From: a virus
Length of the DNA stretch: 64,000 bases
Virus record (IMG/VR): IMGVR_UViG_3300044858_003017
Direction: 5' to 3' (one strand)
Position numbers and translations under genes: made by a program. The notes under the pieces are model-generated. The model had not been told where the DNA came from and made no database searches. It saw only the letters and a list, made by a program, of their open reading frames with translations. Below, one piece after another: positions 15,010-45,785 of the stretch. Positions within the stretch are counted from its first letter, which is position 1; each line of letters begins with the position of its first letter.

Positions 15010-18691
<3,682 letters not shown>

Positions 18692-29513: not shown

Positions 29514-30525
29514 TTCGTATTTTATTTAAAAGTTGTATCATAACCGTTTGCCATTGCGGAGTATGTGGAATTTCAAATACGCGTGTGCCCGGATATGTGT
29601 ATTCTTGTTCTGGACGCATCAATTGCATATGTCCTGTATCATCAATACCTAATACTTTGAATGGCACATTGCGCATTGTAATTCTATTACCAGGTATCAT
29701 AGTGCATCGACCCGGATGTTTCCATTGTCCCATATGGTCTTCTATGCCCCCGGTGAATTGCATTATATTATTCCAATCCGTTTCCGTAAGTGTTCGTTGT
29801 TTAGTAATGTGTTGTGCTAATGGCTCAACAACTCGTTCGGTAAATACCATTTGTCCTAATTCTGTTTGTCGCAACATTTCTTTTAATTTATCTATTAAAC
29901 CTTTGTTCCGTAAATGTTTATATGCTAAATTTTCAATTGAATATTCTCCTGCAGTATCCAATCCAGTTTGCCGAAGTTTTCTTAAACGTTTCAACAATGT
30001 TTTGATTTTAAAATCTAATTTAGCATCATCTGGTTTCAAGTTATTGATTTCATATTCAAACGGATCAGCCTTTTGTTGAATAACAGTATCATCAATTTGA
30101 ATGATATCGGCTGCAGGCTTTGTAATCCATTTATTATTTAATATGGAATATACTCCTACTGAATTATGTAGTTGTTGATTTGAATCTTGAGCATATAATT
30201 CAATGTTCATGCCTTGATATGTTAACGGATAATTTGCGGACCAAACTGATTTTTTAGCACGCATATAATCATCAACCACGTGCAAGTTAGTTCCTATTTG
30301 CAAATAGTTCGTAATTACATGTAAATCAATATCACTGTATTTTGTCCAATTATAATTGGCATTGCTACCAATTAATACAATATCAATAACTGGTATATCT
30401 TTTCCTAAAAACTCAGTGAATTTCGAAGCAATACGCAATAGACCATCTCGAACCTTAGGTTTCAATTGATGTCCTATCCAAAGCTTTGGATTCAATTCAT
30501 TATGTGTTTGATATTCGTTTATCAT
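29491..30525 (-). CDS. Pol-beta superfamily nucleotidyltransferase domain protein
   Basis: IGSNANYNWTKYSDIDLH (GS...DxD) and IELYAQD. Confidence 0.75.
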   Translation of the reverse strand: MINEYQTHNELNPKLWIGHQLKPKVRDGLLRIASKFTEFLGKDIPVIDIVLIGSNANYNWTKYSDIDLHVITNYLQIGTNLHVVDDYMRAKKSVWSANYPLTYQGMNIELYAQDSNQQLHNSVGVYSILNNKWITKPAADIIQIDDTVIQQKADPFEYEINNLKPDDAKLDFKIKTLLKRLRKLRQTGLDTAGEYSIENLAYKHLRNKGLIDKLKEMLRQTELGQMVFTERVVEPLAQHITKQRTLTETDWNNIMQFTGGIEDHMGQWKHPGRCTMIPGNRITMRNVPFKVLGIDDTGHMQLMRPEQEYTYPGTRVFEIPHTPQWQTVMIQLLNKIRNGSKYAK

Positions 30526-33086
30526 TATTTTGCTAACGGTGTTGTAAATTTTTGTTGTTTTACCATTGGAATTTCAGATGCTGCTTTAAATTGTCCTAAA
30601 TCACCAGGATTAATTACTTCATTACCAAAGCCAATTGCCTCTTCAATCATTTTAAATGGCCATGTTCCAAAAACATATGCTAATAAGGTTGCAATTACGC
30701 CTTGTTTTTCATCAATATTATCCGAATCGACACCTATTTTTTCAAAAAAGTCTCGAAACTCATTATAATATACGTCCAATCGTTTTAGATTTAGCATTCC
30801 GTCTAATACCTTTAAAAATCCTCGAACTAGGCCTCCAATATATTTGTTTAAAAATGCACTTTTTTGAAAAGCTTCATTAACCCATTTGCCTACAGTTCCT
30901 TCTAAATCGAATGCTTTTCCTGCGCCAAAATCATATTTGGCAAATCCTACTTTGGCTGTATCATAAAAATTATAAATTCGATTTGGCATTATTGCCCGTA
31001 TGTTATTCCAAAAACTCATAGCCCATATTTTATATACAGCATTACCTTTTTGTATGCAATCTATAATAACATCATCTAAAAATTTATTAAGAGCGTCTGC
31101 ATTTCTGGCCAAAGGTGCTAAAACTAAATCATTAAATGTTCTTCTAAATCCTAGACCAGTACCGAGTGAATCTCGTAATACTCTAGAAAATGCAGCTACA
31201 ATCTCTCGCATACCCGCTTCACCAATTTGTTGTATTGTTTGGCTTCCGAAGCGATCAAATAACGCCGGAAAATATCTTTGAAATATTGCCGGACGTTCTA
31301 ATAACCATTCTGTTAACAATCTAGGATTTTCTCGGAAATATGCATATGCAGCATCAAATATTATTTGTCCGCCATTTTGTGTCCCCACTAACGTTGTAAA
31401 AAATCTAATACCATCTCTGCCTTGTTTTACATATTGAATAAAACTATCAATCATAGAACGTTGAAATGCATCAAACCATTTTTTTCCAACAATTCTATAA
31501 AACATCCTAGTTACCATACCAGCATTTTTAGCTAATTCTGTAGTTAACCCCTTAAGTACTTCTCGTATACCACGGTTTCCTACATATCCTGCAACTTCGG
31601 CCGTACCTTTAGAACCAGCGACTACCAAATCACTAGCAGTATCCATTCCTTTTGCAATTTCATCCATAGATCTAGCAAATTGTCGCGCGTAGTCTTCAAG
31701 TGGTCGACCATAATTTGCAACTATATCATCTAAAACGCGACCGACCCAACCTACAATTGCACGTCCACGCAAGTTTCTAGCAATGTCCATTAATCTACGA
31801 AGTCCGCTCGTAACAGCACTTAGAGCCTGAGATGCAAATGATCTTAATGCTTGCCTTGCTGCTCTATTTCGAGCTAAGTATTCTATGAATGTTCTACGGG
31901 CGCCTTGTGCCCATGCCCTAGGACCTTGTCGAATTAAATATTCCAAGGCTTCAATTCCAGTTTTGCCGCCAATTTTTAATCCTTTAAATGCTAATTTAAA
32001 ACCATTTTTAAATACACTACCAAACAGTGGTATTATTGCAATCATTGATAACAATGCTTCTAATTTCTTACCGCGTATCCAATATACCAATCCATTAAGT
32101 ACATCAATAGCATCACCATATCCTGGAATTAATCCTGCCCAATCTGCAACACTTTGAATTCTATCAACCCACGATGTTGCAGAAAAATCATATTCTTTTT
32201 GATTTTTCCATTTCGTTTCATATTTTCTTTTAACGCCGGTAATATCTAACCATAAAGCTCGTGCAAATCCTGCACCCTTATATGGATCATAATTTTTTTC
32301 TAAAAATTTATTGTTAAATGTAAACATTAATGTATAATCATTTTGAACGCCAGTTAATATCGGAGCTTCTTTTTCTAATTCCGAATATATTGAAATTTTA
32401 TTGCCCGTTACTTTATAAGTAAATGCTGATTCTTTTGCCATTGATAGTGTCTCGGGCATAATTGTTACAGTTCCGTCTGGATGAAATCGCATAAATGCAA
32501 TAGATTTACCTTTATTGTCTGTACATAAAATTTCATAATCATACCATTGATTACCCGGATTTGATCTATCAAATACATATCCCGAATTCATACGTTCGCC
32601 TTTATCTGCTTTACCGTATTGTGGATCTTGCTGTACAATTTGTTTAAAGAAATTATCAGCTGCAGTGTTTTTCCATTTATTAAATGGCGTTGACTTATCG
32701 AATTTACCAGTTTTAATAAATTTTAATATTTCTGCTTGTTGATTGTTTACTATGAAATTATAACTTTTTGATAAAAAATCTTTTTTAACCTTCTCAGCTG
32801 ATTTTAGAATATTTAAAATATGTTGCTTATTTGATGCGGCAAATGTCTGTGCATCAGTTCTTGCAAGGTCTGACCCTGTTTTAGGATTCCACGGTGCTAT
32901 TTGTTCATTTAATGATTTGATTTCTGTATCATTTAATTGACCAAATCGCAATTCATGATATTCTCGTAAAAATTTTAATATGCGAACATGTTTTTCTATG
33001 TCAATATTAGCTGATACATTATTTGCAGATAATGGTATTAATTGCGGTTTTAATGATGATTCAATAATTAAATCTAATGATTTCAT
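30525..33086 (-). CDS. large hypothetical protein with pre-toxin TG-like segment
   Basis: DWAGLIPGYGDAIDVLNGLVY...EALLSMIAIIPLFG; MKSLDLIIE start. Confidence 0.7.
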   Translation of the reverse strand: MKSLDLIIESSLKPQLIPLSANNVSANIDIEKHVRILKFLREYHELRFGQLNDTEIKSLNEQIAPWNPKTGSDLARTDAQTFAASNKQHILNILKSAEKVKKDFLSKSYNFIVNNQQAEILKFIKTGKFDKSTPFNKWKNTAADNFFKQIVQQDPQYGKADKGERMNSGYVFDRSNPGNQWYDYEILCTDNKGKSIAFMRFHPDGTVTIMPETLSMAKESAFTYKVTGNKISIYSELEKEAPILTGVQNDYTLMFTFNNKFLEKNYDPYKGAGFARALWLDITGVKRKYETKWKNQKEYDFSATSWVDRIQSVADWAGLIPGYGDAIDVLNGLVYWIRGKKLEALLSMIAIIPLFGSVFKNGFKLAFKGLKIGGKTGIEALEYLIRQGPRAWAQGARRTFIEYLARNRAARQALRSFASQALSAVTSGLRRLMDIARNLRGRAIVGWVGRVLDDIVANYGRPLEDYARQFARSMDEIAKGMDTASDLVVAGSKGTAEVAGYVGNRGIREVLKGLTTELAKNAGMVTRMFYRIVGKKWFDAFQRSMIDSFIQYVKQGRDGIRFFTTLVGTQNGGQIIFDAAYAYFRENPRLLTEWLLERPAIFQRYFPALFDRFGSQTIQQIGEAGMREIVAAFSRVLRDSLGTGLGFRRTFNDLVLAPLARNADALNKFLDDVIIDCIQKGNAVYKIWAMSFWNNIRAIMPNRIYNFYDTAKVGFAKYDFGAGKAFDLEGTVGKWVNEAFQKSAFLNKYIGGLVRGFLKVLDGMLNLKRLDVYYNEFRDFFEKIGVDSDNIDEKQGVIATLLAYVFGTWPFKMIEEAIGFGNEVINPGDLGQFKAASEIPMVKQQKFTTPLAK

Positions 33087-33116
33087 AATATTATATACCT
33101 TTTTTAATAAATATGT

Positions 33117-33464
33117 TTACTTCCAAAAGAGTTGGACTAAAATAAGTGATAGCGCTAGCAATAACGATACCGATGTTTTTAAATTAACAGCTTCGCCTTT
33201 AAACATGTATGTCATAATGGTAAATACAATGATGCCGGCTACAAAAGATGTAAAACGACCAGGCCAGAATTGTCCGCCATACCCGGATACTGCATATCGC
33301 GTTGCTTCCATAAACGCCCATGTTATGGGAACTCCTAATAACATCAATGCAAATTTATATGTTCTAGCCCATTGCCATAATAAAGGACCATTTACTTGAA
33401 CCCAAACGACAATTTGGCCAAGAAAAAATATCAATAAAGATATTACAACGTGTTTATAATTCAT
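33117..33464 (-). CDS. four-TM membrane protein (DMT/SMR-like topology)
   Basis: four hydrophobic helices in 115 aa; TAATG-coupled. Confidence 0.7.
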   Translation of the reverse strand: MNYKHVVISLLIFFLGQIVVWVQVNGPLLWQWARTYKFALMLLGVPITWAFMEATRYAVSGYGGQFWPGRFTSFVAGIIVFTIMTYMFKGEAVNLKTSVSLLLALSLILVQLFWK

Positions 33465-34141
33465 TATTCAGATTGATTTGTTGCGTATTTTATTCCCATG
33501 ATTGTTCCAATAATACTAAATGCGTTGGTAAGCAATATTCCAAATATGTTTGACCAAGCTGCACTTATAACTTGAGTATCTTTTCCAACAATCAAAGTAA
33601 ATACATATACGCCTGTGGTAATGACGCCAACGCCGACAATTACATAAAGTGCAACTTTAACTATGGTTGAAATAAGTTCTGTTTGATTGCGCTTTTGTAA
33701 TAAATCCAAATCATTTTCTGCATTTTGTTTTGCAGCCTCTGCTTCTAATTTTGATTGTTCAGCACGTACCATTTCTACTCGTAACTCTTCCGTTAAACGA
33801 ATGTTAGTTGTTTTCCATTCATTCAACTCTTTATTTTGTTGTTCAAATGCCGTTTTTGATTGTTCAACATTTTCTAAGGTATCTTGTAACTCAGTTAATA
33901 TTCTTTGATTTTCATCATTCAATGAAGTCAATTCTTCATTTTGTTTTTGAATCTTTTTAGTCATCTCCAGACGCTTCTTTCGTTTTTCTGCGTCTTTAGA
34001 TTCACATTCTTTCAAATACTCTTTAAAGTCTTCATCATCTTCTCGTTCAATAAGCTTTGTAATATTGCCTTCGAGACCAATACCTTTTTTCTGATAAAGT
34101 TCAATTAACTGTTTTTTAGTATTGTCATCAATTTTAATCAT
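33464..34141 (-). CDS. coiled-coil protein with two C-terminal TM helices
   Basis: E/K/Q-rich heptads then two hydrophobic segments; ATGA-coupled to the receiver gene. Confidence 0.75.
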   Translation of the reverse strand: MIKIDDNTKKQLIELYQKKGIGLEGNITKLIEREDDEDFKEYLKECESKDAEKRKKRLEMTKKIQKQNEELTSLNDENQRILTELQDTLENVEQSKTAFEQQNKELNEWKTTNIRLTEELRVEMVRAEQSKLEAEAAKQNAENDLDLLQKRNQTELISTIVKVALYVIVGVGVITTGVYVFTLIVGKDTQVISAAWSNIFGILLTNAFSIIGTIMGIKYATNQSE

Positions 34142-34575
34142 TTATAAATTTTAAATGGTGCTGTTCTATTTTTATAACCATCATAGTCTTTTCTAAAGTC
34201 TTCTAATCTAGGTTCTATATCATCTGATTTGATAATCCAAAACTGCGCTCCTACTTGTATAGCACGAGCTTGCTCTTCTGATTCATTTGATGATGAAATG
34301 ATTCCAATGACAACTTGATTGCCATATTCAAAATTAATTTTTCGTATCAATTCGATGCCATCAAATGAACTACCAATTATATTTAAATCAACAAATACGC
34401 ATTCTGGTTTTTCATCCGAACCACCATCATTAAACCATCGTTTAAATTTCTTTTCCGCCTCATCTGCACTACTAAGTGACTGCAATGATAAACTTATATC
34501 AAGCAATGAACATGCATCTTCAAACACTAAATGGAATAAATCCTCATCATCTACTAACAAAATTGAATCAATCAT
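34138..34575 (-). CDS. single-domain response regulator (CheY-like receiver)
   Basis: LLVDDE, VFVDLN phospho-Asp, DGIELI, ISSS, conserved K in WIIKS; no output domain. Confidence 0.92.
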   Translation of the reverse strand: MIDSILLVDDEDLFHLVFEDACSLLDISLSLQSLSSADEAEKKFKRWFNDGGSDEKPECVFVDLNIIGSSFDGIELIRKINFEYGNQVVIGIISSSNESEEQARAIQVGAQFWIIKSDDIEPRLEDFRKDYDGYKNRTAPFKIYK

Positions 34576-34584
34576 CTCTTTTCT

Positions 34585-35997
34585 TTATTTTACTTTTATT
34601 TTTATTTTAGTTCCAATTTCATTTTCCTCACATTCCATATCAAATCCATGCTCTTTTAATATAGCAAAAGATATGTTTAATCCAAGGCCAATTTCATCAT
34701 TATTTTCTTTCGAAACCGATTTTAAATGTTTTTTAAATTCTTTATTTGTCATACCAATTCCATTGTCTTGTACTATGATATGATTCCCTTCTATAAATAT
34801 CGATACGGTTTTGTTTTCGCTGTTATTGTATTTCAATCCGTTCTTAACTAAATTCTCAATTGCATTGCAAAATAATATTGAATTAACTGGTAATACTCCT
34901 AATTCTGAAATTGAAACTTGTTTAGCATAAGATGTCTTTTCAAAATAGTCATTTAATAATTGCGTAACATCTTGTTCGTCCGTATCAAAATCTACAGTAC
35001 GTTTAACTAGATTAGTAAATTCATATACGCTTTTATAAACTCGTTGTGTATGATTTAATCCTTCGCGTACCATTTTAAGTGACCCTTCAATCTTAAGTTG
35101 TTTGATAGTATCCACAGGTAATCTTTTTTCTAATGACGATATCCCACGTGGTATGTATGTGTTGATACCAGAGTGCATATCGTGCCTAATAATTCGCGCA
35201 GCATATTCTAAGTAGGTGTTTTTAGTATTTATATCCGCCAACTGTCTAATTATTTCTTTGTCTTGACCTTTAATTGTTTTTCGTTGGAATAAAATCATAA
35301 TACCTAAAAACATAAGTAAAATAGTAATACCCGCGCCAATCAAGTAATTATTTAATTTCTTCGCATCATCTTTTAATTTAACTGCTTCAACTTTCATTTT
35401 TTCTTCTTTAACAGTTAAATCAATGATTGTCTTTTCTTTGCCTAAATTCTTAATAGATTCATCCTTCGCTTTAATTACTTCGGGACTAGCATGACTTCTA
35501 ATAAGTGCTTCTTTTTCTTTGATTAGTTTTTCTATTTGGCCTTCAATCTCTTGTGCTAATTTCTTCATGTCCGTTGGACTCACATTTTCAAAAGACTTTG
35601 GTATACTTTGTAAAAATTCTTTATCGCTTTGCAAACTTGCTGCTATATCAGCTGGCACTTCTTCTTCAAATACAACTTCGGGTTCTAATTTTACAATTTC
35701 AACATGTGCCTTTACTCGTTCAAAATACCAATCAGCTCCTTCATACATGTCTCGTTGTCTAAACGCTTTACCCAATTGTCTACATATGTCAGCTTCATTC
35801 TTAGTAATATTGCGTTTTGATTTTTGTAAATCATCAATTCCAACTTTGTTAATTAAAGCTGTTATCTGCGGGTCTTCGGGACATGTAGGTATTCCTTTAA
35901 CCCAAACAATTGATTGTTCTGGATCGATTATTCTTGTTTGTGACGTAACGTTAATGGTTACGCATAATAATAATATCGTTAATAATAAATGTTTCAT
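34585..35997 (-). CDS. sensor histidine kinase with periplasmic domain (start moved to MKHLLL)
   Basis: signal peptide, extracytoplasmic helical domain, TM, H-box RHDMHSG, N-box NLVKNGLKYN, DNGIG, GLGL. Confidence 0.9.
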   Translation of the reverse strand: MKHLLLTILLLCVTINVTSQTRIIDPEQSIVWVKGIPTCPEDPQITALINKVGIDDLQKSKRNITKNEADICRQLGKAFRQRDMYEGADWYFERVKAHVEIVKLEPEVVFEEEVPADIAASLQSDKEFLQSIPKSFENVSPTDMKKLAQEIEGQIEKLIKEKEALIRSHASPEVIKAKDESIKNLGKEKTIIDLTVKEEKMKVEAVKLKDDAKKLNNYLIGAGITILLMFLGIMILFQRKTIKGQDKEIIRQLADINTKNTYLEYAARIIRHDMHSGINTYIPRGISSLEKRLPVDTIKQLKIEGSLKMVREGLNHTQRVYKSVYEFTNLVKRTVDFDTDEQDVTQLLNDYFEKTSYAKQVSISELGVLPVNSILFCNAIENLVKNGLKYNNSENKTVSIFIEGNHIIVQDNGIGMTNKEFKKHLKSVSKENNDEIGLGLNISFAILKEHGFDMECEENEIGTKIKIKVK

Positions 35998-36629
35998 GGC
36001 GTTGGTAGTATTTGATAAGGGAATTGAAATTGAGTTGGTCTCCATCTATCTTTATAATATGTCAACCAATCTTCATTAGGTTCATCTTTTATCTCTCGAT
36101 TATAATTTTTCCAATATGGATCATCAGAAACTGGTCCGCGTCTGGCTATAGAAAAATTACCAGTTCTTCTATGTCCAACAATTATATAAGAAGCTAGGTC
36201 TATTGCCATAACTGTAGATTTAGTATATGAATAATATATGATTGCATTGCTAGATGCCGTATTATACAACCATGTACTAACGCTATCATATCTTTGTTGC
36301 AAACTATCAAAATTACTAAATTTATTTTTAAGAGTAAATTGTAAATTGTTTGCAACAGCTTGTAGACTATCGATTACTAATTGTTGTTTGTCTTGTTGTT
36401 TTATCATTTCTAGATTAAGACTATCAATTATTGTTTGTTGTTTAGCAATATTGTTTTTATAAAATGCAACTCTGCTTCGTTGGTTTGCAAGAAGAAGTTC
36501 TATATCTTGATTTTGTTCAACGGTATAAATAACTACAGAATCGCCTTTTAATATAGTTTGTACTGGATAGTTTTGCGATAATGATATAAAAGATATTGCA
36601 ATAAGTAATATCGTCAATAACCGTTTCAT
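35994..36629 (-). CDS. secreted/periplasmic coiled-coil protein
   Basis: Sec signal peptide, IDSL-type heptads; ATGA-coupled on both sides. Confidence 0.75.
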   Translation of the reverse strand: MKRLLTILLIAISFISLSQNYPVQTILKGDSVVIYTVEQNQDIELLLANQRSRVAFYKNNIAKQQTIIDSLNLEMIKQQDKQQLVIDSLQAVANNLQFTLKNKFSNFDSLQQRYDSVSTWLYNTASSNAIIYYSYTKSTVMAIDLASYIIVGHRRTGNFSIARRGPVSDDPYWKNYNREIKDEPNEDWLTYYKDRWRPTQFQFPYQILPTP

Positions 36630-37531
36630 GTCAACCTTATTTTTAATTTAGTTCCAATATTGTTTTTTTCACATGAAATTCCAAATCCATGTTCTTGTAG
36701 TATAGCAATACAAATATTCAATCCCAATCCACTGCCAGTTTCTTTTTGTCCTTCTTTTCTAGTATATGGTTGAGATAATGTATCAAATTCTTGTTGAGTT
36801 ATGCCGCGGCCATTATCTTGCAAAATCAACAAATCATTTTCCATATATATCTTAACTAATTTTAGATCACTATCGTTGTATTTTAATCCATTGCGAATTA
36901 AATTATCTAATGCTGTACAAAACAATGATTCATTAACTGATACAATGGGTAATTCGTCAATGATAACTTGACTTTTATATGAAGTAGATGCTAGATAATT
37001 TTCTAAGATAGTTTTTAAATTGTGATCGGCTCTATCTAATACGGCATCTTTTTTTACTAGATTAGTAAATTCATAAACACCTTTATAAACTTTTTGGGAA
37101 TGAGCAAGTCCTTCCTTTATCATTTTCAATGGTGCTTCAATTTTTAATTCTGCGATTACAGAATCAGGTACTCTGCGTTCTAAAGATGATATGCCTCTCG
37201 GAATATAAGTATTAATACCCGAATGCATATCGTGTCTAAGTATCTTTGCTGCATGTTCCAGATATGTATTTTGTTTGCGTACTTCGCCAACCTGATTATT
37301 AATCTCTTCAATCATCCGTCGTTTTTGTAATAAGAATTCAGATGCAAAAACAAAGAATGGAAATATAAATCCAATTACACAACCATATCCAAATTTGCTT
37401 AGTTCATAACTAGTAGAACACCAACCCATAATGGCACAAATTTGTACAATAAAGAAAATAATCATAATAGCACCAGTAATTCCTAGTGCTATTTTTGATT
37501 TTAATGATATGCCCGATAATGCATTGCGCAT
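36626..37531 (-). CDS. two-TM histidine kinase (start moved to MRNALS)
   Basis: two TM helices, H-box RHDMHSG, NLIRNGLKYN, DNGRG, GSGLGL; TAATG overlap with amidase stop. Confidence 0.9.
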   Translation of the reverse strand: MRNALSGISLKSKIALGITGAIMIIFFIVQICAIMGWCSTSYELSKFGYGCVIGFIFPFFVFASEFLLQKRRMIEEINNQVGEVRKQNTYLEHAAKILRHDMHSGINTYIPRGISSLERRVPDSVIAELKIEAPLKMIKEGLAHSQKVYKGVYEFTNLVKKDAVLDRADHNLKTILENYLASTSYKSQVIIDELPIVSVNESLFCTALDNLIRNGLKYNDSDLKLVKIYMENDLLILQDNGRGITQQEFDTLSQPYTRKEGQKETGSGLGLNICIAILQEHGFGISCEKNNIGTKLKIRLT

Positions 37532-38208
37532 TACAATGTTTTCAGCATTGCAATCATACGAGGACAAGGATATATATCCGATTTATCCTTACGATATGAA
37601 TTGTGCGTATACACACCTACTTCTCCTTTCAAAGCTCGCGTTGATACTGACCACATATCTTCTTCTCGGTATGTTAAGTCAATGCCGTAAGTGTCTCGCC
37701 AATGTAACAATAATTGTTTAACAGATTCAATTTGTGCATCTGTATACGCATGATAATATTTATGTCCTTTATATGGCGTTTCTAATTCCGTCACTTGATC
37801 TGCAGGAATTTCTCGATCCACATAATTATAAAATTTATCTCCAACTTTGTCTAATCCACCCCAGTTACAAATTTCAATTCCAATTGATATCTTATCTAAT
37901 GCTTTGTAAGGAACGCCCTTAGCTTTAAACACATCTTGTTTAAGTCCTAAATGATATCCCCAATGCTTAGATGAAAATGCTTGACAAATTTCTCCGTCGT
38001 ATGTATCTTTTGATACGCCTTTACCAGATATAGTAACGCAAGTTGCAATTCGTCCTCTATCATCATTAGCCCACATTTTAATTGTGCCTGGGCCTGATGA
38101 ATTACCTGCGGTGTGATGCAATACGATTTGTTTCTTTTCTGTTGCTTCTTTAATATACTGTGACTCTGGTAATGGAACTTGTTTAATTTTTGATGTATCT
38201 AAACTCAT
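37531..38208 (-). CDS. N-acetylmuramoyl-L-alanine amidase (Amidase_2 endolysin)
   Basis: IVLHHTAG, SIGIEICN, YTDAQIES, HNSYRKDKSD. Confidence 0.9.
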   Translation of the reverse strand: MSLDTSKIKQVPLPESQYIKEATEKKQIVLHHTAGNSSGPGTIKMWANDDRGRIATCVTISGKGVSKDTYDGEICQAFSSKHWGYHLGLKQDVFKAKGVPYKALDKISIGIEICNWGGLDKVGDKFYNYVDREIPADQVTELETPYKGHKYYHAYTDAQIESVKQLLLHWRDTYGIDLTYREEDMWSVSTRALKGEVGVYTHNSYRKDKSDIYPCPRMIAMLKTL

Positions 38209-38210
38209 AT

Positions 38211-38639
38211 TTAACCTTTATTTCGTAAACCTTTATGTAAATCAATTTTATCTAAAATTTCTAATAAAACTTTTCCTTCAATCAATCCCAACATTGATGC
38301 ATTCTTTAATGCACTAACAAGTTGAAATATTATGAATGGCAATAAAATGGTTTCACTCAACCACCCCGTACCCGGAAAACCTTTTTCGATAACTAACAAT
38401 ACCGTTAAAAACATAATCCATACTACCAATGTTCTCAAAACTTTAAGAGCTTTAAATGTTTTGAAGCCTTCATTTTTAGTACCAGCAATTACTCCAAAGA
38501 ACCCATCTGTCATTACTACTGCAACCAATGCCAAATACTGATCTGAATTTGACATTGCCAAGTTGAAGAAATATGTACAAATGAATGCCATCAATGTACT
38601 TGCCGAATATATTATCGCCGATAATGTTGTTGTTTTCAT
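38211..38639 (-). CDS. phage holin (toxin-secretion/holin family-like)
   Basis: multi-TM with D-x-x-x-G-V-I-A and SALKNA-x-x-LG pattern; adjacent to endolysin. Confidence 0.75.
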   Translation of the reverse strand: MKTTTLSAIIYSASTLMAFICTYFFNLAMSNSDQYLALVAVVMTDGFFGVIAGTKNEGFKTFKALKVLRTLVVWIMFLTVLLVIEKGFPGTGWLSETILLPFIIFQLVSALKNASMLGLIEGKVLLEILDKIDLHKGLRNKG

Positions 38640-39229
38640 TATTTAACGTCCGCAGATTCAATCAATGTATAAGTAAAAGAATTTCCATGGATGTCTTTGG
38701 CTTTACGACAAATTGTCATAAATTCTTCAAAATCTTTAACTCTTTTAAATACTTGACAACCTTCAGACCAATTTTCAACATAAGTTGAATCTGCACCCGC
38801 TTTGTGAATGTTGATTCCAAAAACACCTTCATCCACTTTGTTTTCAGCGTATGTCATGTTGCGATCTGCATCACGAAATACTTTTACTGATTTATATTGT
38901 TTTAATGCTTCATACTTACCTTGATGCAAACCAATTCCGTGTGAACCTCTGTATTGACCTTCAACTAATCGAGCAACGCCTTTTGCATTGTGATATTGCT
39001 GAACACCTTTCTTACCTGGATCAGTTGTACATGGCCATGCATGAAATTTCCATTCGCCATCAACTTTATATGATACTGTCATGATATCATCAAACACGTT
39101 AGTAACTTTATCACCTGTTGCAGAATTTCGTACTCCTACAATATTCACATCATAATTTTTTGCACCTTCAAACCAAACATATCCTTTAGCTTTTACGGTA
39201 GCTTCAATTTGTTCTCTTGTATAAGACAT
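38639..39229 (-). CDS. L,D-transpeptidase (YkuD)-like cell-wall enzyme
   Basis: GINIHKAG...WSEGCQ His/Cys catalytic pattern. Confidence 0.65.
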   Translation of the reverse strand: MSYTREQIEATVKAKGYVWFEGAKNYDVNIVGVRNSATGDKVTNVFDDIMTVSYKVDGEWKFHAWPCTTDPGKKGVQQYHNAKGVARLVEGQYRGSHGIGLHQGKYEALKQYKSVKVFRDADRNMTYAENKVDEGVFGINIHKAGADSTYVENWSEGCQVFKRVKDFEEFMTICRKAKDIHGNSFTYTLIESADVK

Positions 39230-39238
39230 TGTTAACCT

Positions 39239-39493
39239 TTATATTTCTTCGCTGTTTTCGTTATTTGATTTTTTTCCTGCAAACTTTTCTAAACCTGCAA
39301 TTCCTAAACTTCCCAATGTTACAATAACAAATGAATTGTAAATGTATTCATTTAATTTTAATTCATTACCAAAATATCCTGTTATTAAATCTACAACCAT
39401 TGCAAGTGTCATAACTGCAAATGACATAAATCCAATAATGGTTTTTTCATTGTAATCATTCGAATCTTTAAAGATTTGTTTGAATCCGCCCAT
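39239..39493 (-). CDS. small two-TM holin-like protein (start moved to MGGFKQ)
   Basis: two TM helices, charged tail; GGGAG and ATATTTAT upstream. Confidence 0.65.
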   Translation of the reverse strand: MGGFKQIFKDSNDYNEKTIIGFMSFAVMTLAMVVDLITGYFGNELKLNEYIYNSFVIVTLGSLGIAGLEKFAGKKSNNENSEEI

Positions 39494-39558
39494 TATATCT
39501 CCCGTTAAATTATTACTTTCGTATAAATATAACAAAACAAACAAATCAATGAGAAAAT

Positions 39559-40707
39559 TTATTTTTTACAAACAACTAGATCTTTTTCATATGTTTCCAT
39601 AGAAACAATTGTAATTTTTAAATTACCTATTGTAAAGGTGCCGGGTTCTCCAGAATCTTGTACTATTGCTGATAAATTTTGTATAACATCAAAATCTTGT
39701 TGAGTAAATGCATTTCCATCAATTTCTACAACGATATCATTATAATCATATCTATCCAACTCAGTTAATGAATGGCAACGTTTACGTAAATCAAATTTTG
39801 TATTAGGTTGTTCTAATGTAACATATTTCATCCACTCTGCATCTGAGTATATTTGTTCGCCAAACGGTTCTAATAATTCTAATAAGTGTGCCGTACAATT
39901 TTCAATACGTATTCCAATATTATATTTTGGTGCCGATAATCGCATACCCCATTTTCTAATGAAATTTCTATTTGAATTCAATTCAATTTGCTGTGTTCGA
40001 GTTTGATATTCTTCTGAAAATCTAGATGTTTTACTAACAAAATGATAACATATTGCATCCAATGCAGTAAAACAATTCATTCCCAATAAATTCCATCGAC
40101 GAATCAAATCATCATCTTCGCAAAACATTGGATTGAATAAATTATCCATACCTCCAATTTCTAATAACTTGATGCGAGGCATACACATAAAAAACGTAAT
40201 ACCAGATTCAGTTTTGTTTTCATATTTAGATTTATTTGTTCTAACAAACTCGTATAACGCCCCCTTATCAAACGTCTCTAAAGATGTACCCAAATCATGT
40301 ATTAGTTTACCTGGACGTTCATGTCCTGCGAATATAGGCGGTTCTATTGTGGTATATGCAACCACATTGTTAGCATCTACATGTTTTTCTAAATTTTCAA
40401 TAAAACCAGGCGCTAATACAATATCATTATGTAAATATGCTACATAGTCGCGCGTAGCTAATTCTGCTGCTTTGTTAAATGTATCAGAAAACGTTTTGTT
40501 TTCAACTGAATAGAAATACTTTAAGTTATCATCTAATAATGTGTCTAACCATTCATGCGTTCCATCAGTTGACCCATAACTTACAAAACATATTTCTACT
40601 TCTGGATATAATGCTCTAGTTGTTTCGTAAAAATGTTTATTGTAGTCTAAATTATTTTTTAGTCCTACTAATAATGAAATGTTATTTTCCATATAATATT
40701 TGTTCAA
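39559..40707 (-). CDS. GT2 family glycosyltransferase
   Basis: GSTDGT, YLHNDI, FCEDDDL motifs. Confidence 0.85.
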   Translation of the reverse strand: MNKYYMENNISLLVGLKNNLDYNKHFYETTRALYPEVEICFVSYGSTDGTHEWLDTLLDDNLKYFYSVENKTFSDTFNKAAELATRDYVAYLHNDIVLAPGFIENLEKHVDANNVVAYTTIEPPIFAGHERPGKLIHDLGTSLETFDKGALYEFVRTNKSKYENKTESGITFFMCMPRIKLLEIGGMDNLFNPMFCEDDDLIRRWNLLGMNCFTALDAICYHFVSKTSRFSEEYQTRTQQIELNSNRNFIRKWGMRLSAPKYNIGIRIENCTAHLLELLEPFGEQIYSDAEWMKYVTLEQPNTKFDLRKRCHSLTELDRYDYNDIVVEIDGNAFTQQDFDVIQNLSAIVQDSGEPGTFTIGNLKITIVSMETYEKDLVVCKK

Positions 40708-41557
40708 TTCGTTCTTCTAATGTATATTTAGGTTTGTATATTGATAGCATTAAACTAGGATCACATACTCTAAAAGAAACTCCAATTGGTTTTTCTAATA
40801 AATGTTTAATTCCATTCTCTGGCCGCCATTTGCTAATTTCAAACATAGTTTCAGCTAATGTATTAAATGGAGTAGCTATTCCACTTCCTAGATTCAATGC
40901 ATCAACTTGAACATCATTTTCTACAACAGTCATAACCGCTTCTACAATATCTTCCATATGGATAAAATCTCGTACTTGCGTACCATCGCCCCAAATTTCA
41001 AATTCAGAAACTTTTCTTTTAATTCTATCAATGAATGATGGGAATGGATAAGTTAAATCCTGATCTGCGCCATATCCTGAGAATGGTCTAAATACATAAA
41101 CTTTAGTTCCTTGTTCTCTAACAAATTTTGCTAAATATTCGCCTGTTAATTTAGCCCAACCATATGTATAATCTGGTAATCTAATATCATCTAAATTAAT
41201 ATCCGATTCTTTTAAATGATATTGCAATTCTGGATGTTGTAAATGTACTGGGTATGCTGCACTAGAACTAAAGTAAACTACTCTAGGTTGTTTTGTTTTT
41301 ATTACCCAGTTAAAGAACTCCGAATCAATTGATAAATCTGTTGCTACTGATAACGGTTCATTTTCAATTGTTTCTCGACCACCTACGATTGCTGCTAAAT
41401 GAATTATCAAATCAAATTTTTGAGTTGAAGTTTTAAAAAAGTCGCGACAATCGTTTCCTTCTTTTAAATCAACTCCAGTTATTTCATGTTTACCATTAAA
41501 ATAACGTAAAAAGGATCTGCCTACGAACCCCATATGGCCTGTAATTAATATTTTCAT
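40682..41557 (-). CDS. NAD-dependent epimerase/dehydratase
   Basis: TGHMGFVG, HLAA, SSSAAY, YGWAK, GDGTQVRDF. Confidence 0.93.
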   Translation of the reverse strand: MKILITGHMGFVGRSFLRYFNGKHEITGVDLKEGNDCRDFFKTSTQKFDLIIHLAAIVGGRETIENEPLSVATDLSIDSEFFNWVIKTKQPRVVYFSSSAAYPVHLQHPELQYHLKESDINLDDIRLPDYTYGWAKLTGEYLAKFVREQGTKVYVFRPFSGYGADQDLTYPFPSFIDRIKRKVSEFEIWGDGTQVRDFIHMEDIVEAVMTVVENDVQVDALNLGSGIATPFNTLAETMFEISKWRPENGIKHLLEKPIGVSFRVCDPSLMLSIYKPKYTLEERIEQILYGK

Positions 41558-42420
41558 AAATTTTCTATAAAATTAAAAATGCTTGTATATGCATCTTGTT
41601 CAAATTGTTTATAAATCTCGTCATTCTTTTCATTTAATGTCCCAACTCGTTTTGTAGGGTGAACTTGATTATGTCCTTTTAATCTAGTTGATATATGATA
41701 TTGTGGTATATTTTTTTTAGTAAAAAACATTTCTAAACAATAATCTTCTCGAGCAAAATGTAAATCTAATGGTAAAAATGGATATGGTAAATTTCTTGCT
41801 AGTGCGGTCATATTACCATCTATCTTCAATCGGTCTAATTTAATTAAAATTGGATCGAATTGACTATTAAATTTATTTAATTCATCAATTGAAATATAAT
41901 CAGTACAATTAAATGGAGCTGGAGCTTGTTCTGGACGTATTGCGGGGCCGTTTCTAGGAAATTTATGTATCCACGGATGTTCTACATCATCCCATGTACT
42001 ATCCCACATTTTTCTAGTTGCTAATGAAATAAAATGTGGATGATCTAATTCTATGTTTGATAATAGAAAGAAATAATCTTCTGGGACTAAACAATCAGAT
42101 TCTCCCCATACAATGTATTTATAATCATATTCTGGACCGTAAATATCTCTACGGAAATCTCCTATATTATAAAATTCATCATCATTTGTTTTATATGAAA
42201 TGATTGCATTCTTTAAAACTGGATGATTTATAAATTCATTAAACATCTCTATTGGAATAACGTTGTCAGGCTTTTCTATAAATGTTTGAGCATTTAAATA
42301 TACTATTAAATCTACTGGGATAATACTATTTTGAATTGCATGCTCAACTGAATCTAATGTTTCATTTAACATTTTAGACTCATACCACATTACGTGTAAT
42401 GTATATAATATTTTATTCAT
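41554..42420 (-). CDS. putative GT-A fold glycosyltransferase
   Basis: WGESD and REDY acidic motifs; cluster context. Confidence 0.55.
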   Translation of the reverse strand: MNKILYTLHVMWYESKMLNETLDSVEHAIQNSIIPVDLIVYLNAQTFIEKPDNVIPIEMFNEFINHPVLKNAIISYKTNDDEFYNIGDFRRDIYGPEYDYKYIVWGESDCLVPEDYFFLLSNIELDHPHFISLATRKMWDSTWDDVEHPWIHKFPRNGPAIRPEQAPAPFNCTDYISIDELNKFNSQFDPILIKLDRLKIDGNMTALARNLPYPFLPLDLHFAREDYCLEMFFTKKNIPQYHISTRLKGHNQVHPTKRVGTLNEKNDEIYKQFEQDAYTSIFNFIENL

Positions 42421-43277
42421 ATAATTGATTGATATAAATTAATGTGTTGTTGTGCAACATATTTGCTGTTGCATAATTCTTTTATTTCTTCCGGCGCCGT
42501 TGAATCTATTGATAAAATATTTCCATTGATATCAATTAAATACATATATCCTGGCACATCGCAACACCAACCTTCTAAAGTTGTTCTGCCTAATAAAATT
42601 CCTGCAGTAAAATGCATCATCTGTACTATGTTTTCAGTATCCCATCGTTTGTCTACATATTTAATGTTTGGATGCTTAAAGTCATAACGACTTTCACTCA
42701 TTAGATACAAATCCCAATCATTTTCAATGCATTGTTGAACTAAATGCTGAACTGCTTGAAAACGTATTGGATCTAAAACTTCTCCAACAAAAATTCCAGA
42801 ATAACGTTCTAATTTTGAAGCCTCATTGGAATTAAATCTAGTTCTATCAATTGGATTGTATATCAATGAAACTTTGGATGCTGGTATATTGTAGTCATTG
42901 ATAAGCATATCTACAATTGGTTTTCGTATTACAACATAATGTGATATTCTAGAATCCAATATCGGATCTTCAGATCTAATTTCTGAATGTATGATACTAA
43001 TTATAGGAATATTTTTAAAATGTTCCAACATAAACAAATTGACTTGCGGTTGACTTGCTACTATTATATCATATTTTTCTGTAATATCCAAATTTGTTGT
43101 ATCTAATTGTCGAACATGTTGAAGTTTTAATCGTACTTCATCCATCCAATCAATTTCTCGCAATGTGAATAATGTAACATCGTGTCCTAATGCATCTAAT
43201 TCACGTGTTAGTTCATAATGATATAATTCACTTCCGCCTAAGCCATTAGCATTCAAACAACCTAATAGTATTTTCAT
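42417..43277 (-). CDS. GT-B (GT4-like) glycosyltransferase
   Basis: GGSELY...LGHDVTLF, IYNPID, GRTTLEG. Confidence 0.75.
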   Translation of the reverse strand: MKILLGCLNANGLGGSELYHYELTRELDALGHDVTLFTLREIDWMDEVRLKLQHVRQLDTTNLDITEKYDIIVASQPQVNLFMLEHFKNIPIISIIHSEIRSEDPILDSRISHYVVIRKPIVDMLINDYNIPASKVSLIYNPIDRTRFNSNEASKLERYSGIFVGEVLDPIRFQAVQHLVQQCIENDWDLYLMSESRYDFKHPNIKYVDKRWDTENIVQMMHFTAGILLGRTTLEGWCCDVPGYMYLIDINGNILSIDSTAPEEIKELCNSKYVAQQHINLYQSII

Positions 43278-43897
43278 ATTTTTTGTAAGATAAAATTAAT
43301 TGTATTTTGCCAAACAATCCTATATTCAGTATGACATATATCTGATAACTGCTGTATTGTGATATTATTAGAATTATGTTCGAATATAAAAAATTCTGGT
43401 CTGTATCCTAATTCATATAATCTACTAAATGCTAAAATATCCTTACCCTCGATGTCAATGCTAATAATATCAAAGTAATCAATCTTGATATCTGATACTA
43501 ATTGATCAATTGTCTTTGTTTTAATTAGTTCTTCAGTATAGTGAACATTTCTATTAGTTTCCCAATATGTTTTTTCTGAAGTTGACATTGTAGATACTTG
43601 ATTAATTGTATCTGGCTCTAAATTTCCTAAATAAATCACCGTTTCCGTTTCTTCTGAATCAATTGCATATGGATATATGATAACTTGATTATTTTCAGAA
43701 TATAATTCATTTAATTTAGATATACATTGGCTAGTAGGTTCTACTAATACGCCTTTCCATCCTAGTTTTTCAATAAAATATCTAGAATTTGAATAAGTTG
43801 TTCCGTCATTTGCACCTATATCTAATATAGATCCAATTTTATTATTGTTAGACAACTGATTAACAATAAAAAGGTCTTCTCCGTGTTGTGAATACAT
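43274..43897 (-). CDS. FkbM family methyltransferase
   Basis: YSQHGED, LDIGANDG, VEP, SIDIEG. Confidence 0.9.
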   Translation of the reverse strand: MYSQHGEDLFIVNQLSNNNKIGSILDIGANDGTTYSNSRYFIEKLGWKGVLVEPTSQCISKLNELYSENNQVIIYPYAIDSEETETVIYLGNLEPDTINQVSTMSTSEKTYWETNRNVHYTEELIKTKTIDQLVSDIKIDYFDIISIDIEGKDILAFSRLYELGYRPEFFIFEHNSNNITIQQLSDICHTEYRIVWQNTINFILQKI

Positions 43898-43900
43898 AAG

Positions 43901-44491
43901 TTACTTTGTTGCTACGATATATTGAAAATGTGCTTTGTGATGTAATGTTACATTCCATCCTGCGTCTACAAACATTTCTTTATATGAATCCCCATTAAAC
44001 ACCCATAAATGAAATGGTGCGTGATATGTTGGTGTTTCATAATCGGGAGATGATGCTATGATATATTTTACGCCGTTATTTAATAATTTTTTAATAAATG
44101 TGTCTGGATCTACTAAATGCTCTAATACTTCTGTACAAATTGCAATATCTGGGAATTTAATATCATCTTCGATTATAAAATCTTTGTAAAATACATTATC
44201 TGTATTTCCGCGTGTAATTGCATCTTCTACATTTGCAGGACATAAATCATAACCCCAAATTGTATTTGAAACTTTTGACTGAATCTCGCGAATTAGTCCA
44301 GCATTGCCACAACCAAAATCACAAATTGTTAAATCTTTATTTTGTTCATGATTTAATATTTGTAATAAAAAATCTTGCACTTGCAATAATCTAGGACGAT
44401 GTCCTGCTTCATTTATATGATCAACTGCTTCTCGGTCTTTATACCATTCTGCATCATGACTATGTGGTTTATCAAATGTTTTATATCTCAT
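43901..44491 (-). CDS. class I SAM-dependent methyltransferase
   Basis: DFGCGNAG, EVLEHLVDP. Confidence 0.9.
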   Translation of the reverse strand: MRYKTFDKPHSHDAEWYKDREAVDHINEAGHRPRLLQVQDFLLQILNHEQNKDLTICDFGCGNAGLIREIQSKVSNTIWGYDLCPANVEDAITRGNTDNVFYKDFIIEDDIKFPDIAICTEVLEHLVDPDTFIKKLLNNGVKYIIASSPDYETPTYHAPFHLWVFNGDSYKEMFVDAGWNVTLHHKAHFQYIVATK

Positions 44492-45165
44492 AATAATTCT
44501 TTTATTTTATTAATGTCAATCATTCTTTGTGGACTATTCATATAGATTTGATATTGTTGTTGATCATATGGTGCAACAGATGCTGCATCTACATATTGTG
44601 AATCTCGTACTGCTTTGCCGTTGTCTGGATGTACATGTTCAAATATTACTTCATCAAAGTATTTAATAATATTTAAGCTATGTCCTAAATCTAACCAAAA
44701 ATTGTCAGCATACATATGAATTAAATTCTTAGGAACCATATATTCTAATTTGTCAACTATATTAGAAGTTAAACAAACTGCGGTTGGTAATTTAGCTCCT
44801 TGTAATAAATCATTACCATATGCGATGCCAACTCCATTATTTTTTTCAAAATAAGAAATAAACTTAGATTCCCAAGCTGATTGAATAACGTGATCATCGC
44901 CAAAAAACGCAATATATTTATATTGGTCTTTATATTTCATGGCAATTTGATTCAATGTTGGAATCATCCTTATTCGAGGATTCACTTCATAAATAACGCC
45001 ATCTCTTCTAGGATATTGATGATCATCATCAGAGTCTAATGCAATGCATAAATCACTATGTCCTTCTGAATGAAGTTGACAATGTTGTATAAATCGATCA
45101 ACATTTGGATATCTGACACTTTCACCAGATCTGGATGGTACTATAATTAAAATTTCTTTTTTCAT
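44488..45165 (-). CDS. GT2-like glycosyltransferase
   Basis: IIVPSR, LDSDD, FGDDH, HMYADN. Confidence 0.75.
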   Translation of the reverse strand: MKKEILIIVPSRSGESVRYPNVDRFIQHCQLHSEGHSDLCIALDSDDDHQYPRRDGVIYEVNPRIRMIPTLNQIAMKYKDQYKYIAFFGDDHVIQSAWESKFISYFEKNNGVGIAYGNDLLQGAKLPTAVCLTSNIVDKLEYMVPKNLIHMYADNFWLDLGHSLNIIKYFDEVIFEHVHPDNGKAVRDSQYVDAASVAPYDQQQYQIYMNSPQRMIDINKIKELL

Positions 45166-45785
45166 AATGTATTGTAATAATTGTTTTGTTTTTCTTGTCG
45201 TTCAATTGTTTTAGGATGATATAGAGCGAACTCCTCCATTTCTGGCAAACTGGTCCACGTCTTATGTCCATTTAATACTTCATGGACTTTATTAATCCAT
45301 TTAATTTCTGTTTTGTTTTTCCAAATTCTCCATTGATTGTCCGGCCAATTGATCCAGCCCTGATCATTTACATTCCAGCGCCATTTTGTAATATGTTCTT
45401 GAGTAATTCCTTCTACTGTATTAACGCGTGGAACTAAAAATACATCACAATCAAAGTTTTCTTCTAATACATATGGTAATACTTCTACTAGTTTTTCATG
45501 AGGTATTTCATCTGCATCGATCTGAAAAATATAATCGCCGCTACATAAACTAGTTAACTTATTTTTCCAATCTGCAAAATGTCCTGCAAACTCACCTTTA
45601 TGCCAAGAAAATTCTTTATTAACAGAGTGTGATCGTAAAAAAGCTTCAATCTCTAAATCTCCATTTTTACTATCAAACAAGATAACAATATTGTCTTGTA
45701 TTCTTTTATGTTTAAGCAAGTGTGTAATGAGTCTTTGAATTTCTTTAAACTCATTGCACACCGTAATAGCGTATGTTATTTTCAT
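45162..45785 (-). CDS. GT2 family glycosyltransferase
   Basis: ITVCNE, QIDADE, KVHE. Confidence 0.85.
   Translation of the reverse strand: MKITYAITVCNEFKEIQRLITHLLKHKRIQDNIVILFDSKNGDLEIEAFLRSHSVNKEFSWHKGEFAGHFADWKNKLTSLCSGDYIFQIDADEIPHEKLVEVLPYVLEENFDCDVFLVPRVNTVEGITQEHITKWRWNVNDQGWINWPDNQWRIWKNKTEIKWINKVHEVLNGHKTWTSLPEMEEFALYHPKTIERQEKQNNYYNTL

Follow-up and report, generated by a model that had tools for sequence, protein, structure and literature searches.

What is a two-component system doing in the lysis cassette of a phage? The question is raised by a block of ten genes at positions 33117-39544 of a 64,000-nucleotide stretch of viral DNA (IMG/VR record IMGVR_UViG_3300044858_003017), which is referred to below as the window and which derives from an uncultured freshwater phage of about 150 kb. 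The ten open reading frames (ORFs) are all encoded on the minus strand and are numbered g1 to g10 from the 39544 end to the 33117 end. In the ORF list and the sequence of the window, each of their junctions was found to be an overlap or a gap of at most 9 nt, and their order agreed with that given in a preliminary description of the sequence. Families were assigned with Pfam, PHROGs, and NCBIfam, in which no match was obtained for g1, g6, g9, and g10. On balance, we lean toward the view that the block is a lysis cassette (g1, the YkuD-like g2, the holin g3, and the amidase g4) joined to a phage-specific two-component module that sets the time of lysis via g9. Held with high confidence is the claim that the triad of kinase, receiver, and g9 is a genuine, intact, and phage-specific signalling module that is genetically tied to lysis genes.

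Conservation of the triad and its linkage to lysis genes

Relatives of the first kinase, g5 (HK1), were encoded on more than 590 IMG/VR contigs, and relatives of the receiver, g8, on as many; many of these contigs were 100-322 kb in length. Genes were called and clustered at 156 IMG/VR loci. The order kinase-receiver-g9 was kept in essentially all of those long enough to show it, and the receiver and g9 genes were always adjacent and ATGA-coupled. Neighbouring genes were counted among all 95 unique loci and among those 41 that had 4 kb or more of flanking sequence on each side, where endolysins, g2, holins of the g3 type, and g1 were taken as lysis genes. A lysis gene occurred within three genes of the core in 30 of the 41 well-flanked loci. 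Among the 95 unique loci, lysis genes filled 100 of 482 gene slots (20.7%) within three genes of the core and 28 of 1398 slots (2.0%) further out, a ten-fold enrichment per slot next to the core.

More than 25 arrangements of lysis genes around the core were distinguished, in which these genes preceded or followed it and used either strand. In 23 of 85 unique cases, the endolysin gene came directly after g9. The type of the neighbouring endolysin was also swapped, with about 86 of the PG_binding_1-GH19 type and 17 of the Amidase_2 type, both within the cluster that holds g4. The preliminary description had placed the kinase-receiver block beside holin and endolysin genes, and had named homologues unlinked to lysis genes or close to host loci as evidence to the contrary. 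Most related phage contigs were found to have endolysin or holin genes beside the block, in a variety of arrangements, and the block was essentially absent from bacterial genomes. An origin as a two-component locus of the host was rejected, because among 185,579 species genomes the receiver was found in only four contigs of metagenome-assembled genomes (MAGs), each with the whole triad. These four contigs (L157-L160) are labelled as Verrucomicrobia, Bdellovibrionota, and Alphaproteobacteria, and they are likely to represent phage sequences that binning has assigned to MAGs of unrelated phyla, or else prophage-like elements.

Other genes were also observed close to the triad. For example, a full-length Hsp70/DnaK (850 bits) and a calcineurin-like metallophosphoesterase were encoded a few genes from it in some loci (L086:11416-13287, L084:6599-7294, and relatives). 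In addition, a subgroup with kinases 57-59% identical to HK1 encoded a protein of 62-80 amino acids with one or two transmembrane (TM) segments (cluster c27; L015:5669-5869, L073:9807-9995, and relatives), which always lay immediately upstream of the kinase and overlapped or abutted its start. It could represent an additional membrane partner or else a small protein of the holin or antiholin kind.

The membrane hairpin of g9

The g9 gene (33464-34141, minus strand) encodes 225 amino acids that comprise a small N-terminal domain, a long helix leading into TM1, a tight turn, and TM2. In the AlphaFold2 (AF2) model (pLDDT 85), a helix spans residues 37-185, running from the cytoplasm into TM1, and is followed by a turn and a second helix at residues 190-223, which gives two TM helices in an N-in/C-in topology. 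An alignment of relatives showed conservation of the first approximately 70 residues, of the pre-membrane helix, and above all of the polar, glycine-rich TM2 (WSNxFGILLTNAFSIxGTIMG), while the coiled coil in the middle was variable in length. With 90% clustering, 5552 relatives were identified, without any Pfam family, and the fold neighbours in the Atlas were unnamed viral clusters.

A profile of the hairpin, consisting of the last 100 residues of g9, was searched against 1.8 billion representatives and yielded 117 clusters, in all of which the hairpin was C-terminal. An earlier negative result of a word-indexed search for longer proteins with the hairpin was set aside as a limit of its sensitivity, since the exhaustive profile search recovered such fusions. 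In four longer proteins, the hairpin was fused directly behind a GAF domain (P0127) or a PAS domain (P0159, P0228, and P0154), the same sensor types that are found on the kinases of the triad. All four fusion genes were checked and lay zero to four genes upstream of a wall hydrolase, where the hydrolases belonged to four families (GH19, GH19/glucosaminidase, Amidase_2, and Peptidase_M15_3). The fusion proteins thus share with the triad the C-terminal hairpin, the pre-membrane helix, the place upstream of an endolysin, and the sensor types, but their sensor is joined directly to the hairpin, without a kinase or a receiver. Three matches of the hairpin only (P0124, P0132, and P0135) were on short or otherwise uninformative contigs, and their gene context was uninformative.

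The hairpin thus occurs beside endolysins with either a fused sensor or a kinase and receiver in front of it, and no other finding speaks as strongly for g9 as the end point of the module and for a role in lysis. More broadly, these proteins could plausibly, if not quite probably, belong to a large and purely viral family of lysis regulators, in which an inner-membrane hairpin, as holin or gatekeeper, times lysis under interchangeable front ends, either a fused PAS or GAF domain or a kinase-receiver pair, with two kinases in the present case.

A sharper form of this reading would make g9 the holin itself, with a sensory cytoplasmic stalk that is gated directly by the kinase and the receiver. 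The topology of g9 and the character of its TM2 would suit such a role, and an endolysin directly followed g9 in 23 of 85 unique cases. In ten of these 23 loci, a hydropathy scan found no other small protein with at least two TM segments within eight genes, but the scan was crude and several of the loci were short contigs. Moreover, the window already encodes a holin of the Phage_holin_4_1 family as well as the two-TM protein g1, and the likeness of g9 to holins and antiholins is one of topology and gene position only, with no match to a holin family. We regard this sharper form as improbable.

The two kinases and the receiver

The kinases g5 (HK1; 36626-37531, minus strand, 301 amino acids) and g7 (HK2; 34585-35997, minus strand, 470 amino acids) matched HATPase_c with 44.6 and 43.5 bits, respectively, against a cut-off of 26.4. 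HK1 has two N-terminal TM helices joined by a short loop. HK2 consists of a signal or TM segment, a periplasmic domain of about 200 amino acids, a second TM segment, and the same kinase core as HK1. Among 12 diverse kinase cores, the H-box RHDMHSGINTYxPRG was invariant together with the N, G1 (DNGxG), and G2 (GLGL) boxes, the invariant positions including N138/N142, D167-N-G-x-G171, and G196-L-G-L. This putative H-box sits at the expected place and follows the pattern H-[DE]-hydrophobic. The best relative of solved structure was HK853, where the profile alignment from the Protein Data Bank (PDB) starts at helix 2 of the dimerization and histidine phosphotransfer (DHp) domain and covers this helix and the ATP-binding domain.

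The receiver g8 (34138-34575, minus strand, 145 amino acids) matched Response_reg with 35.5 bits (cut-off 30.2) and contains no other domain. Residues D9, D10, D63, S94-96, and K116 were invariant among 20 relatives with 71-85% identity to g8. Judged by the ATP-binding domain of the kinases and the acceptor pocket of the receiver, the module has the makings of a classical two-component system. It had been described as a two-kinase phosphorelay, which does not hold: neither an Hpt domain nor a fused receiver or hybrid kinase was found in the ten block proteins, and with a single receiver in the window a multi-step His-Asp-His-Asp relay is ruled out, so that two kinases and one receiver take its place. 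HK1 and HK2 are nearly identical over the H-box and the flanking DHp helix 1. Since the DHp helix that carries the histidine sets the partner choice of a kinase, and since the window contains two kinases and one receiver only, both kinases appear to feed g8.

Sensors on the same kinase core varied among relatives and included GAF+PAS(+PAS), PAS alone, two TM segments (as in HK1), and periplasmic domains. Envelope sensing, which the preliminary description had proposed, is not always the input, as most relatives carry cytoplasmic GAF and PAS sensors. An output by protein-protein contact, which had been proposed to run through the two membrane proteins encoded downstream, is reasonable because the receiver has no output domain. 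Only the first of these two proteins is a constant partner, namely g9. The second, g10 (33117-33464, minus strand, 115 amino acids), which has four TM segments and is small DMT-like, was within three genes of the core in 4 of the 41 well-flanked loci and is best described as an optional accessory. A complex prediction from alignments of the receiver and of residues 1-160 of g9 reached a score of 0.22, below the mark of 0.32, and was used neither for nor against their contact.

Across the 80 best loci, the receiver was 79-100% identical, while the kinases and g9 were much less conserved. This degree of conservation would fit an extra conserved partner, and together with the lack of an output domain it is compatible with a receiver that targets host proteins, mimicking or draining the two-component or CheY-like signalling of the host. 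In that case g9 would be a tether or buffer, and the proximity to lysis genes an inherited gene order. However, the sensor-hairpin fusions keep the hairpin and its place beside an endolysin without any receiver, and the translational coupling and constant adjacency of receiver and g9 also speak against a host target, which we consider very unlikely.

The g6-HK2 pair

The g6 gene (35994-36629, minus strand) encodes a secreted protein of 211 amino acids, in which a signal peptide is followed by a coiled coil and a C-terminal domain. It was invariably paired with HK2 in loci with two kinases, and g6 and a second kinase were present in 6 of the 41 unique well-flanked loci. In a quick tree of kinase cores, the kinases that follow g6 formed one clade (SH-aLRT 99), while the first kinases of the two-kinase loci were scattered. 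The g6-HK2 pair is, by this tree, an add-on of single origin that has been joined to different first kinases. The second kinase, which the preliminary description had treated as a part of the core, is an optional addition together with g6, and the conserved unit consists of one kinase, the receiver, and g9.

Homologues of g6 were also found in single-kinase phages, directly upstream of an endolysin or holin (hhalign probability 99.6%, E 2e-24). As these homologues adjoin lysis genes without a second kinase, g6 counts as a periplasmic component of the lysis neighbourhood independently of HK2. HK2 may read g6 or share its cue. No similarity was detected between g6 and the periplasmic domain of HK2, and no match of g6 in the Atlas exceeded 0.78. 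The other protein outside the conserved unit, g10, matched viral clusters in the Atlas, one of which carried DMT_6 (PF04342) in 35% of its members.

Observations that weigh against lysis timing

Several observations count against a role of the module in lysis timing. No recognizable lysis gene was present within three genes of the core in 11 of the 41 unique well-flanked loci, and 20 of the 95 unique loci lacked a lysis gene on either side. Other genes, such as those for a metallophosphoesterase and Hsp70, recurred as neighbours in such loci. The loci were best matches to the proteins of the window and represent one phage lineage, where shared ancestry inflates the counts. Additionally, g9 matched no described holin or antiholin family in Pfam, PHROGs, or NCBIfam, and a canonical holin is already encoded in the window. 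Pfam HisKA was unmatched at E 0.01 in the kinases, where the phospho-acceptor histidine is assigned by position and pattern. In tblastn searches of GenBank phages, HK1 had one weak match and the receiver none, which leaves no kinase or receiver homologue there and no cultured relative. Lastly, relatives in three lake RNA libraries were short contigs only (90-99% alike), two of which span the g8/g9 and g5/g6 junctions; the libraries may contain DNA, and from such fragments no demonstration of expression or co-transcription is possible.

Some of these points would be explained if the triad were a module of the envelope or membrane state with a job other than lysis timing, encoded in a broader set of envelope genes of which the lysis genes are a part. 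Such a job could be superinfection exclusion, late membrane energization, or transport control, and g9, together with g10 where present, would be the regulated membrane effector. The loci without a recognizable lysis gene near the core and the lack of a holin family match for g9 are in line with this explanation, as are the resemblance of g10 to small DMT transporters and the glycosyltransferase genes directly upstream of the block. Against it stand the ten-fold enrichment of lysis genes next to the core, the position of all four checked sensor-hairpin fusions just upstream of wall hydrolases of different families, and the restriction of g10 to a minority of loci. With this evidence on both sides, a function apart from lysis seems unlikely to us, and lysis timing via g9 is retained as the preferred reading.

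The lysis genes

The four genes at the upstream end of the block had been described as encoding a holin-like protein, an L,D-transpeptidase-like enzyme, a holin, and an amidase, and these assignments stand, that of g2 as a probable one. The first gene, g1 (39239-39493, minus strand), encodes 84 amino acids with two TM segments, and its ORF extends to a TTG at 39544. It is a candidate holin- or antiholin-like small membrane protein, and its homologue cluster (c8) recurred near the core and near endolysins in relatives.

The g2 gene (38639-39229, minus strand) encodes 196 amino acids and probably specifies a YkuD-like cell-wall enzyme of the L,D-transpeptidase, carboxypeptidase, or DpaA kind. 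It matched phrog_3000 (9e-37) and, more weakly, the endolysin family phrog_33083 (4e-10), and H142 and S155-x-G157-C158 were invariant among its relatives. No match to YkuD was found in Pfam, and neither the single sequence nor the profile matched a PDB sequence. Of its AF2 model (pLDDT 85), the top PDB fold matches were all of the YkuD family but weak (E 2e-3 to 7e-2, TM-score up to 0.43), the best being DpaA (PDB 8ikr; E 2e-3, TM-score 0.43). From the invariant residues and these weak fold matches, g2 is probably a cysteine enzyme of the YkuD fold. DpaA detaches an outer-membrane lipoprotein from peptidoglycan. With a DpaA-like fold in a lysis cassette, g2 could act on an envelope tether, and not on glycan or stem peptide.

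The holin g3 (38211-38639, minus strand, 142 amino acids) matched Phage_holin_4_1 with 23.9 bits (cut-off 22.2) and the holin family phrog_199, and was below the cut-off for TIGR01593. The endolysin g4 (37531-38208, minus strand, 225 amino acids) is an N-acetylmuramoyl-L-alanine amidase that matched Amidase_2 with 44.8 bits and the amidase family phrog_1794. Both are above their cut-offs and only 2 nt separate them, and together they form a canonical holin-endolysin cassette. No spanin family was matched by the block proteins in Pfam or PHROGs; the secreted coiled-coil protein g6 has no lipobox partner and travels with HK2.

Gene coupling and the ATATTTAT motif

Since nearly all ORFs of the window are on the minus strand, the co-directionality of the block is nothing special. 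The internal ATGs at 39493 (g1), 37531 (g5), and 35997 (g7) were taken as starts because TAATG or ATGA coupling arises there. With these starts, six of the nine junctions overlap, through TAATG at g2-g3, g4-g5, and g9-g10 and through ATGA at g5-g6, g6-g7, and g8-g9, and gaps of 2-9 nt are left at the remaining three (9 nt at g1-g2, 2 nt at g3-g4, and 9 nt at g7-g8). The overlap at g4-g5 bears out the earlier remark that the start of the first kinase overlaps the stop of the amidase. A scan of the sequence for sigma-70 promoters and terminators gave counts of neither above those of shuffled sequences.

A candidate promoter element, ATATTTAT, occurs at 39523-39530 (minus strand), 30 nt upstream of the ATG of g1, and again at 33107-33114 (minus strand), past the end of g10 and 21 nt ahead of the gene that follows it. 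The two copies bracket the block. The preliminary description had noted a single motif in front of the block; that copy is present, but a further one lies inside g7 (34793-34800). The total in the window was not above chance (21 copies against 16.6 +/- 4.3), but the placement was non-random, as 16 of the 21 copies were on the coding strand, and seven of these 16 fell entirely outside minus-strand ORFs, in a part that makes up 5.3% of the window (binomial P ~9e-6). From this placement, ATATTTAT looks like a phage promoter element. Within window positions 8171-50179, it was observed 5-47 nt upstream of many minus-strand gene starts (12037, 16620, 18691, 20374, 22980, 28132, 33086, 39493, 48498, and 50125). 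The genes it precedes are mixed in function (Hoc-like, GroEL, exonuclease, and glycosyltransferases). A designation as a late structural promoter was rejected as unproven, and because the GroEL and exonuclease genes are also preceded by the motif, it is not assignable to a promoter class.

Phage context and host

The window is phage DNA that encodes a DNA polymerase, a thymidylate synthase, GroEL (15010-16620), and a Hoc-like protein, and the same g9 protein was found on contigs of up to 151,663 bp. A host within Bacteroidota is probable, given that the DNA of g1 and g2 resembles that of Bacteroides and Flavobacterium phages and that a related locus encodes a type IX sorting domain. The latter is part of a 735-amino-acid protein encoded beside the triad (L144:2872-5079), whose PKD-like and CHU_C type IX secretion sorting domains point to a Bacteroidota host and to export of this phage protein by the type IX secretion system of that host.

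Directly upstream of the block, window positions 39559-48498 are taken up by an extended series of co-directional genes for glycosyltransferases and NDP-sugar epimerases, and relatives retain the epimerase and one glycosyltransferase beside the lysis and signalling genes. Just downstream, the gene with its own copy of ATATTTAT (30525-33086) encodes 853 amino acids, without a PHROGs match and with relatives that are only 27% identical.

Comparison with known systems

In full-text searches of the literature, no paper was found that describes a phage lysis cassette with a two-component system. The closest systems, those of T4, N4, and LytSR, are not homologous to the module, and none has a stand-alone receiver that acts on a membrane protein.

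Lysis inhibition in phage T4 involves the holin T with the antiholins RI and RIII (PMC11413866). In T4, as is proposed for the window, the triggering of the holin is delayed or timed by a sensory input that the phage itself encodes, through protein-protein contact at the inner membrane. A periplasmic component takes part, namely RI in T4 and, in the window, possibly g6 together with the sensor of HK2. However, the periplasmic antiholin of T4 binds directly, whereas a kinase-receiver pair is proposed to stand between sensor and membrane effector in the window, and most relatives of the module sense in the cytoplasm through GAF and PAS domains. No homologue of holin T, RI, or RIII was found among the ten block proteins with PHROGs and Pfam. 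Similarly, phage N4 encodes the pinholin gp63 with the lysis regulator gp62 (PMC12642591). There, timing is proposed to act at the cytoplasmic regulatory region of the small membrane lysis protein gp63, aided by a two-TM regulator. The "Receiver domain" of gp63, however, is the name of a region and is not CheY-like; N4 has no kinase, and no homology was found.

The bacterial LytSR system works with the holin/antiholin-like LrgAB and CidAB (PMC4830213, PMC5717393), and the DNA-binding output of LytR acts on lrgAB transcription (PMC4830213). The systems would be alike in that a two-component system linked to the membrane state controls holin/antiholin-like proteins and murein hydrolase activity. 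They differ in that the receiver of the window has no output domain, would have a dedicated membrane protein as its partner, and is viral, and in that the kinases carry another sensor and an atypical H-box. Thus, the module is not of the LytSR type, as g8 consists of 145 amino acids with Response_reg only, and the kinases have either two TM segments or a signal segment and one TM segment.

Stand-alone receivers that act by binding a partner include CheY, DivK, CpdR, and Spo0F. Like g8, they consist of a single receiver domain whose phospho-acceptor pocket is complete, and their output runs through protein-protein contact, as is proposed for g8. In contrast, the partner of g8 would belong to the undescribed family of g9, which is without a Pfam entry, and we know of no action of CheY, DivK, CpdR, or Spo0F on lysis or on a holin-like membrane protein.

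Proposed mechanism and significance

The pathway that we infer comprises phosphotransfer, the convergence of two kinases on one receiver, a contact between the receiver and g9, and an effect on lysis. HK1, with its minimal two-TM sensor, and HK2, with its periplasmic domain and in cooperation with the secreted g6, would read different inputs. Each kinase would autophosphorylate on the histidine of the common RHDMH box, and both would transfer the phosphoryl group to Asp63 of the single receiver g8. The phosphorylated receiver would then act on the cytoplasmic part of g9, whose long helix is predicted to lead straight into the conserved polar TM hairpin in the inner membrane. The state of the hairpin would advance or delay the triggering of the holin, or the hairpin would itself form a lesion, and the lysis time would be set in either way. 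An intramembrane cue read by HK1 and a periplasmic cue that reaches HK2 via g6 would thereby be combined.

The timing of lysis fixes burst size and phage fitness, and to our knowledge few routes exist by which it is adjusted to a signal, namely lysis inhibition in T4 and N4 and antiholin isoforms. If true, a phage two-component pathway that ends on a dedicated membrane protein in a lysis cassette would add a new principle to the regulation of phage lysis, and it would be the first known His-Asp phosphorylation pathway to control phage lysis post-translationally. The module is widespread (5552 relatives of g9 and more than 590 viral contigs of up to 322 kb) and modular, as GAF, PAS, two-TM, and periplasmic inputs are interchangeable, and signal-gated lysis parts for synthetic biology could follow. 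The two-kinase form points to an integration of periplasmic and membrane cues by the phage. Under the same premise, many environmental phages would time the burst of their hosts by the physiological or envelope state of the host.

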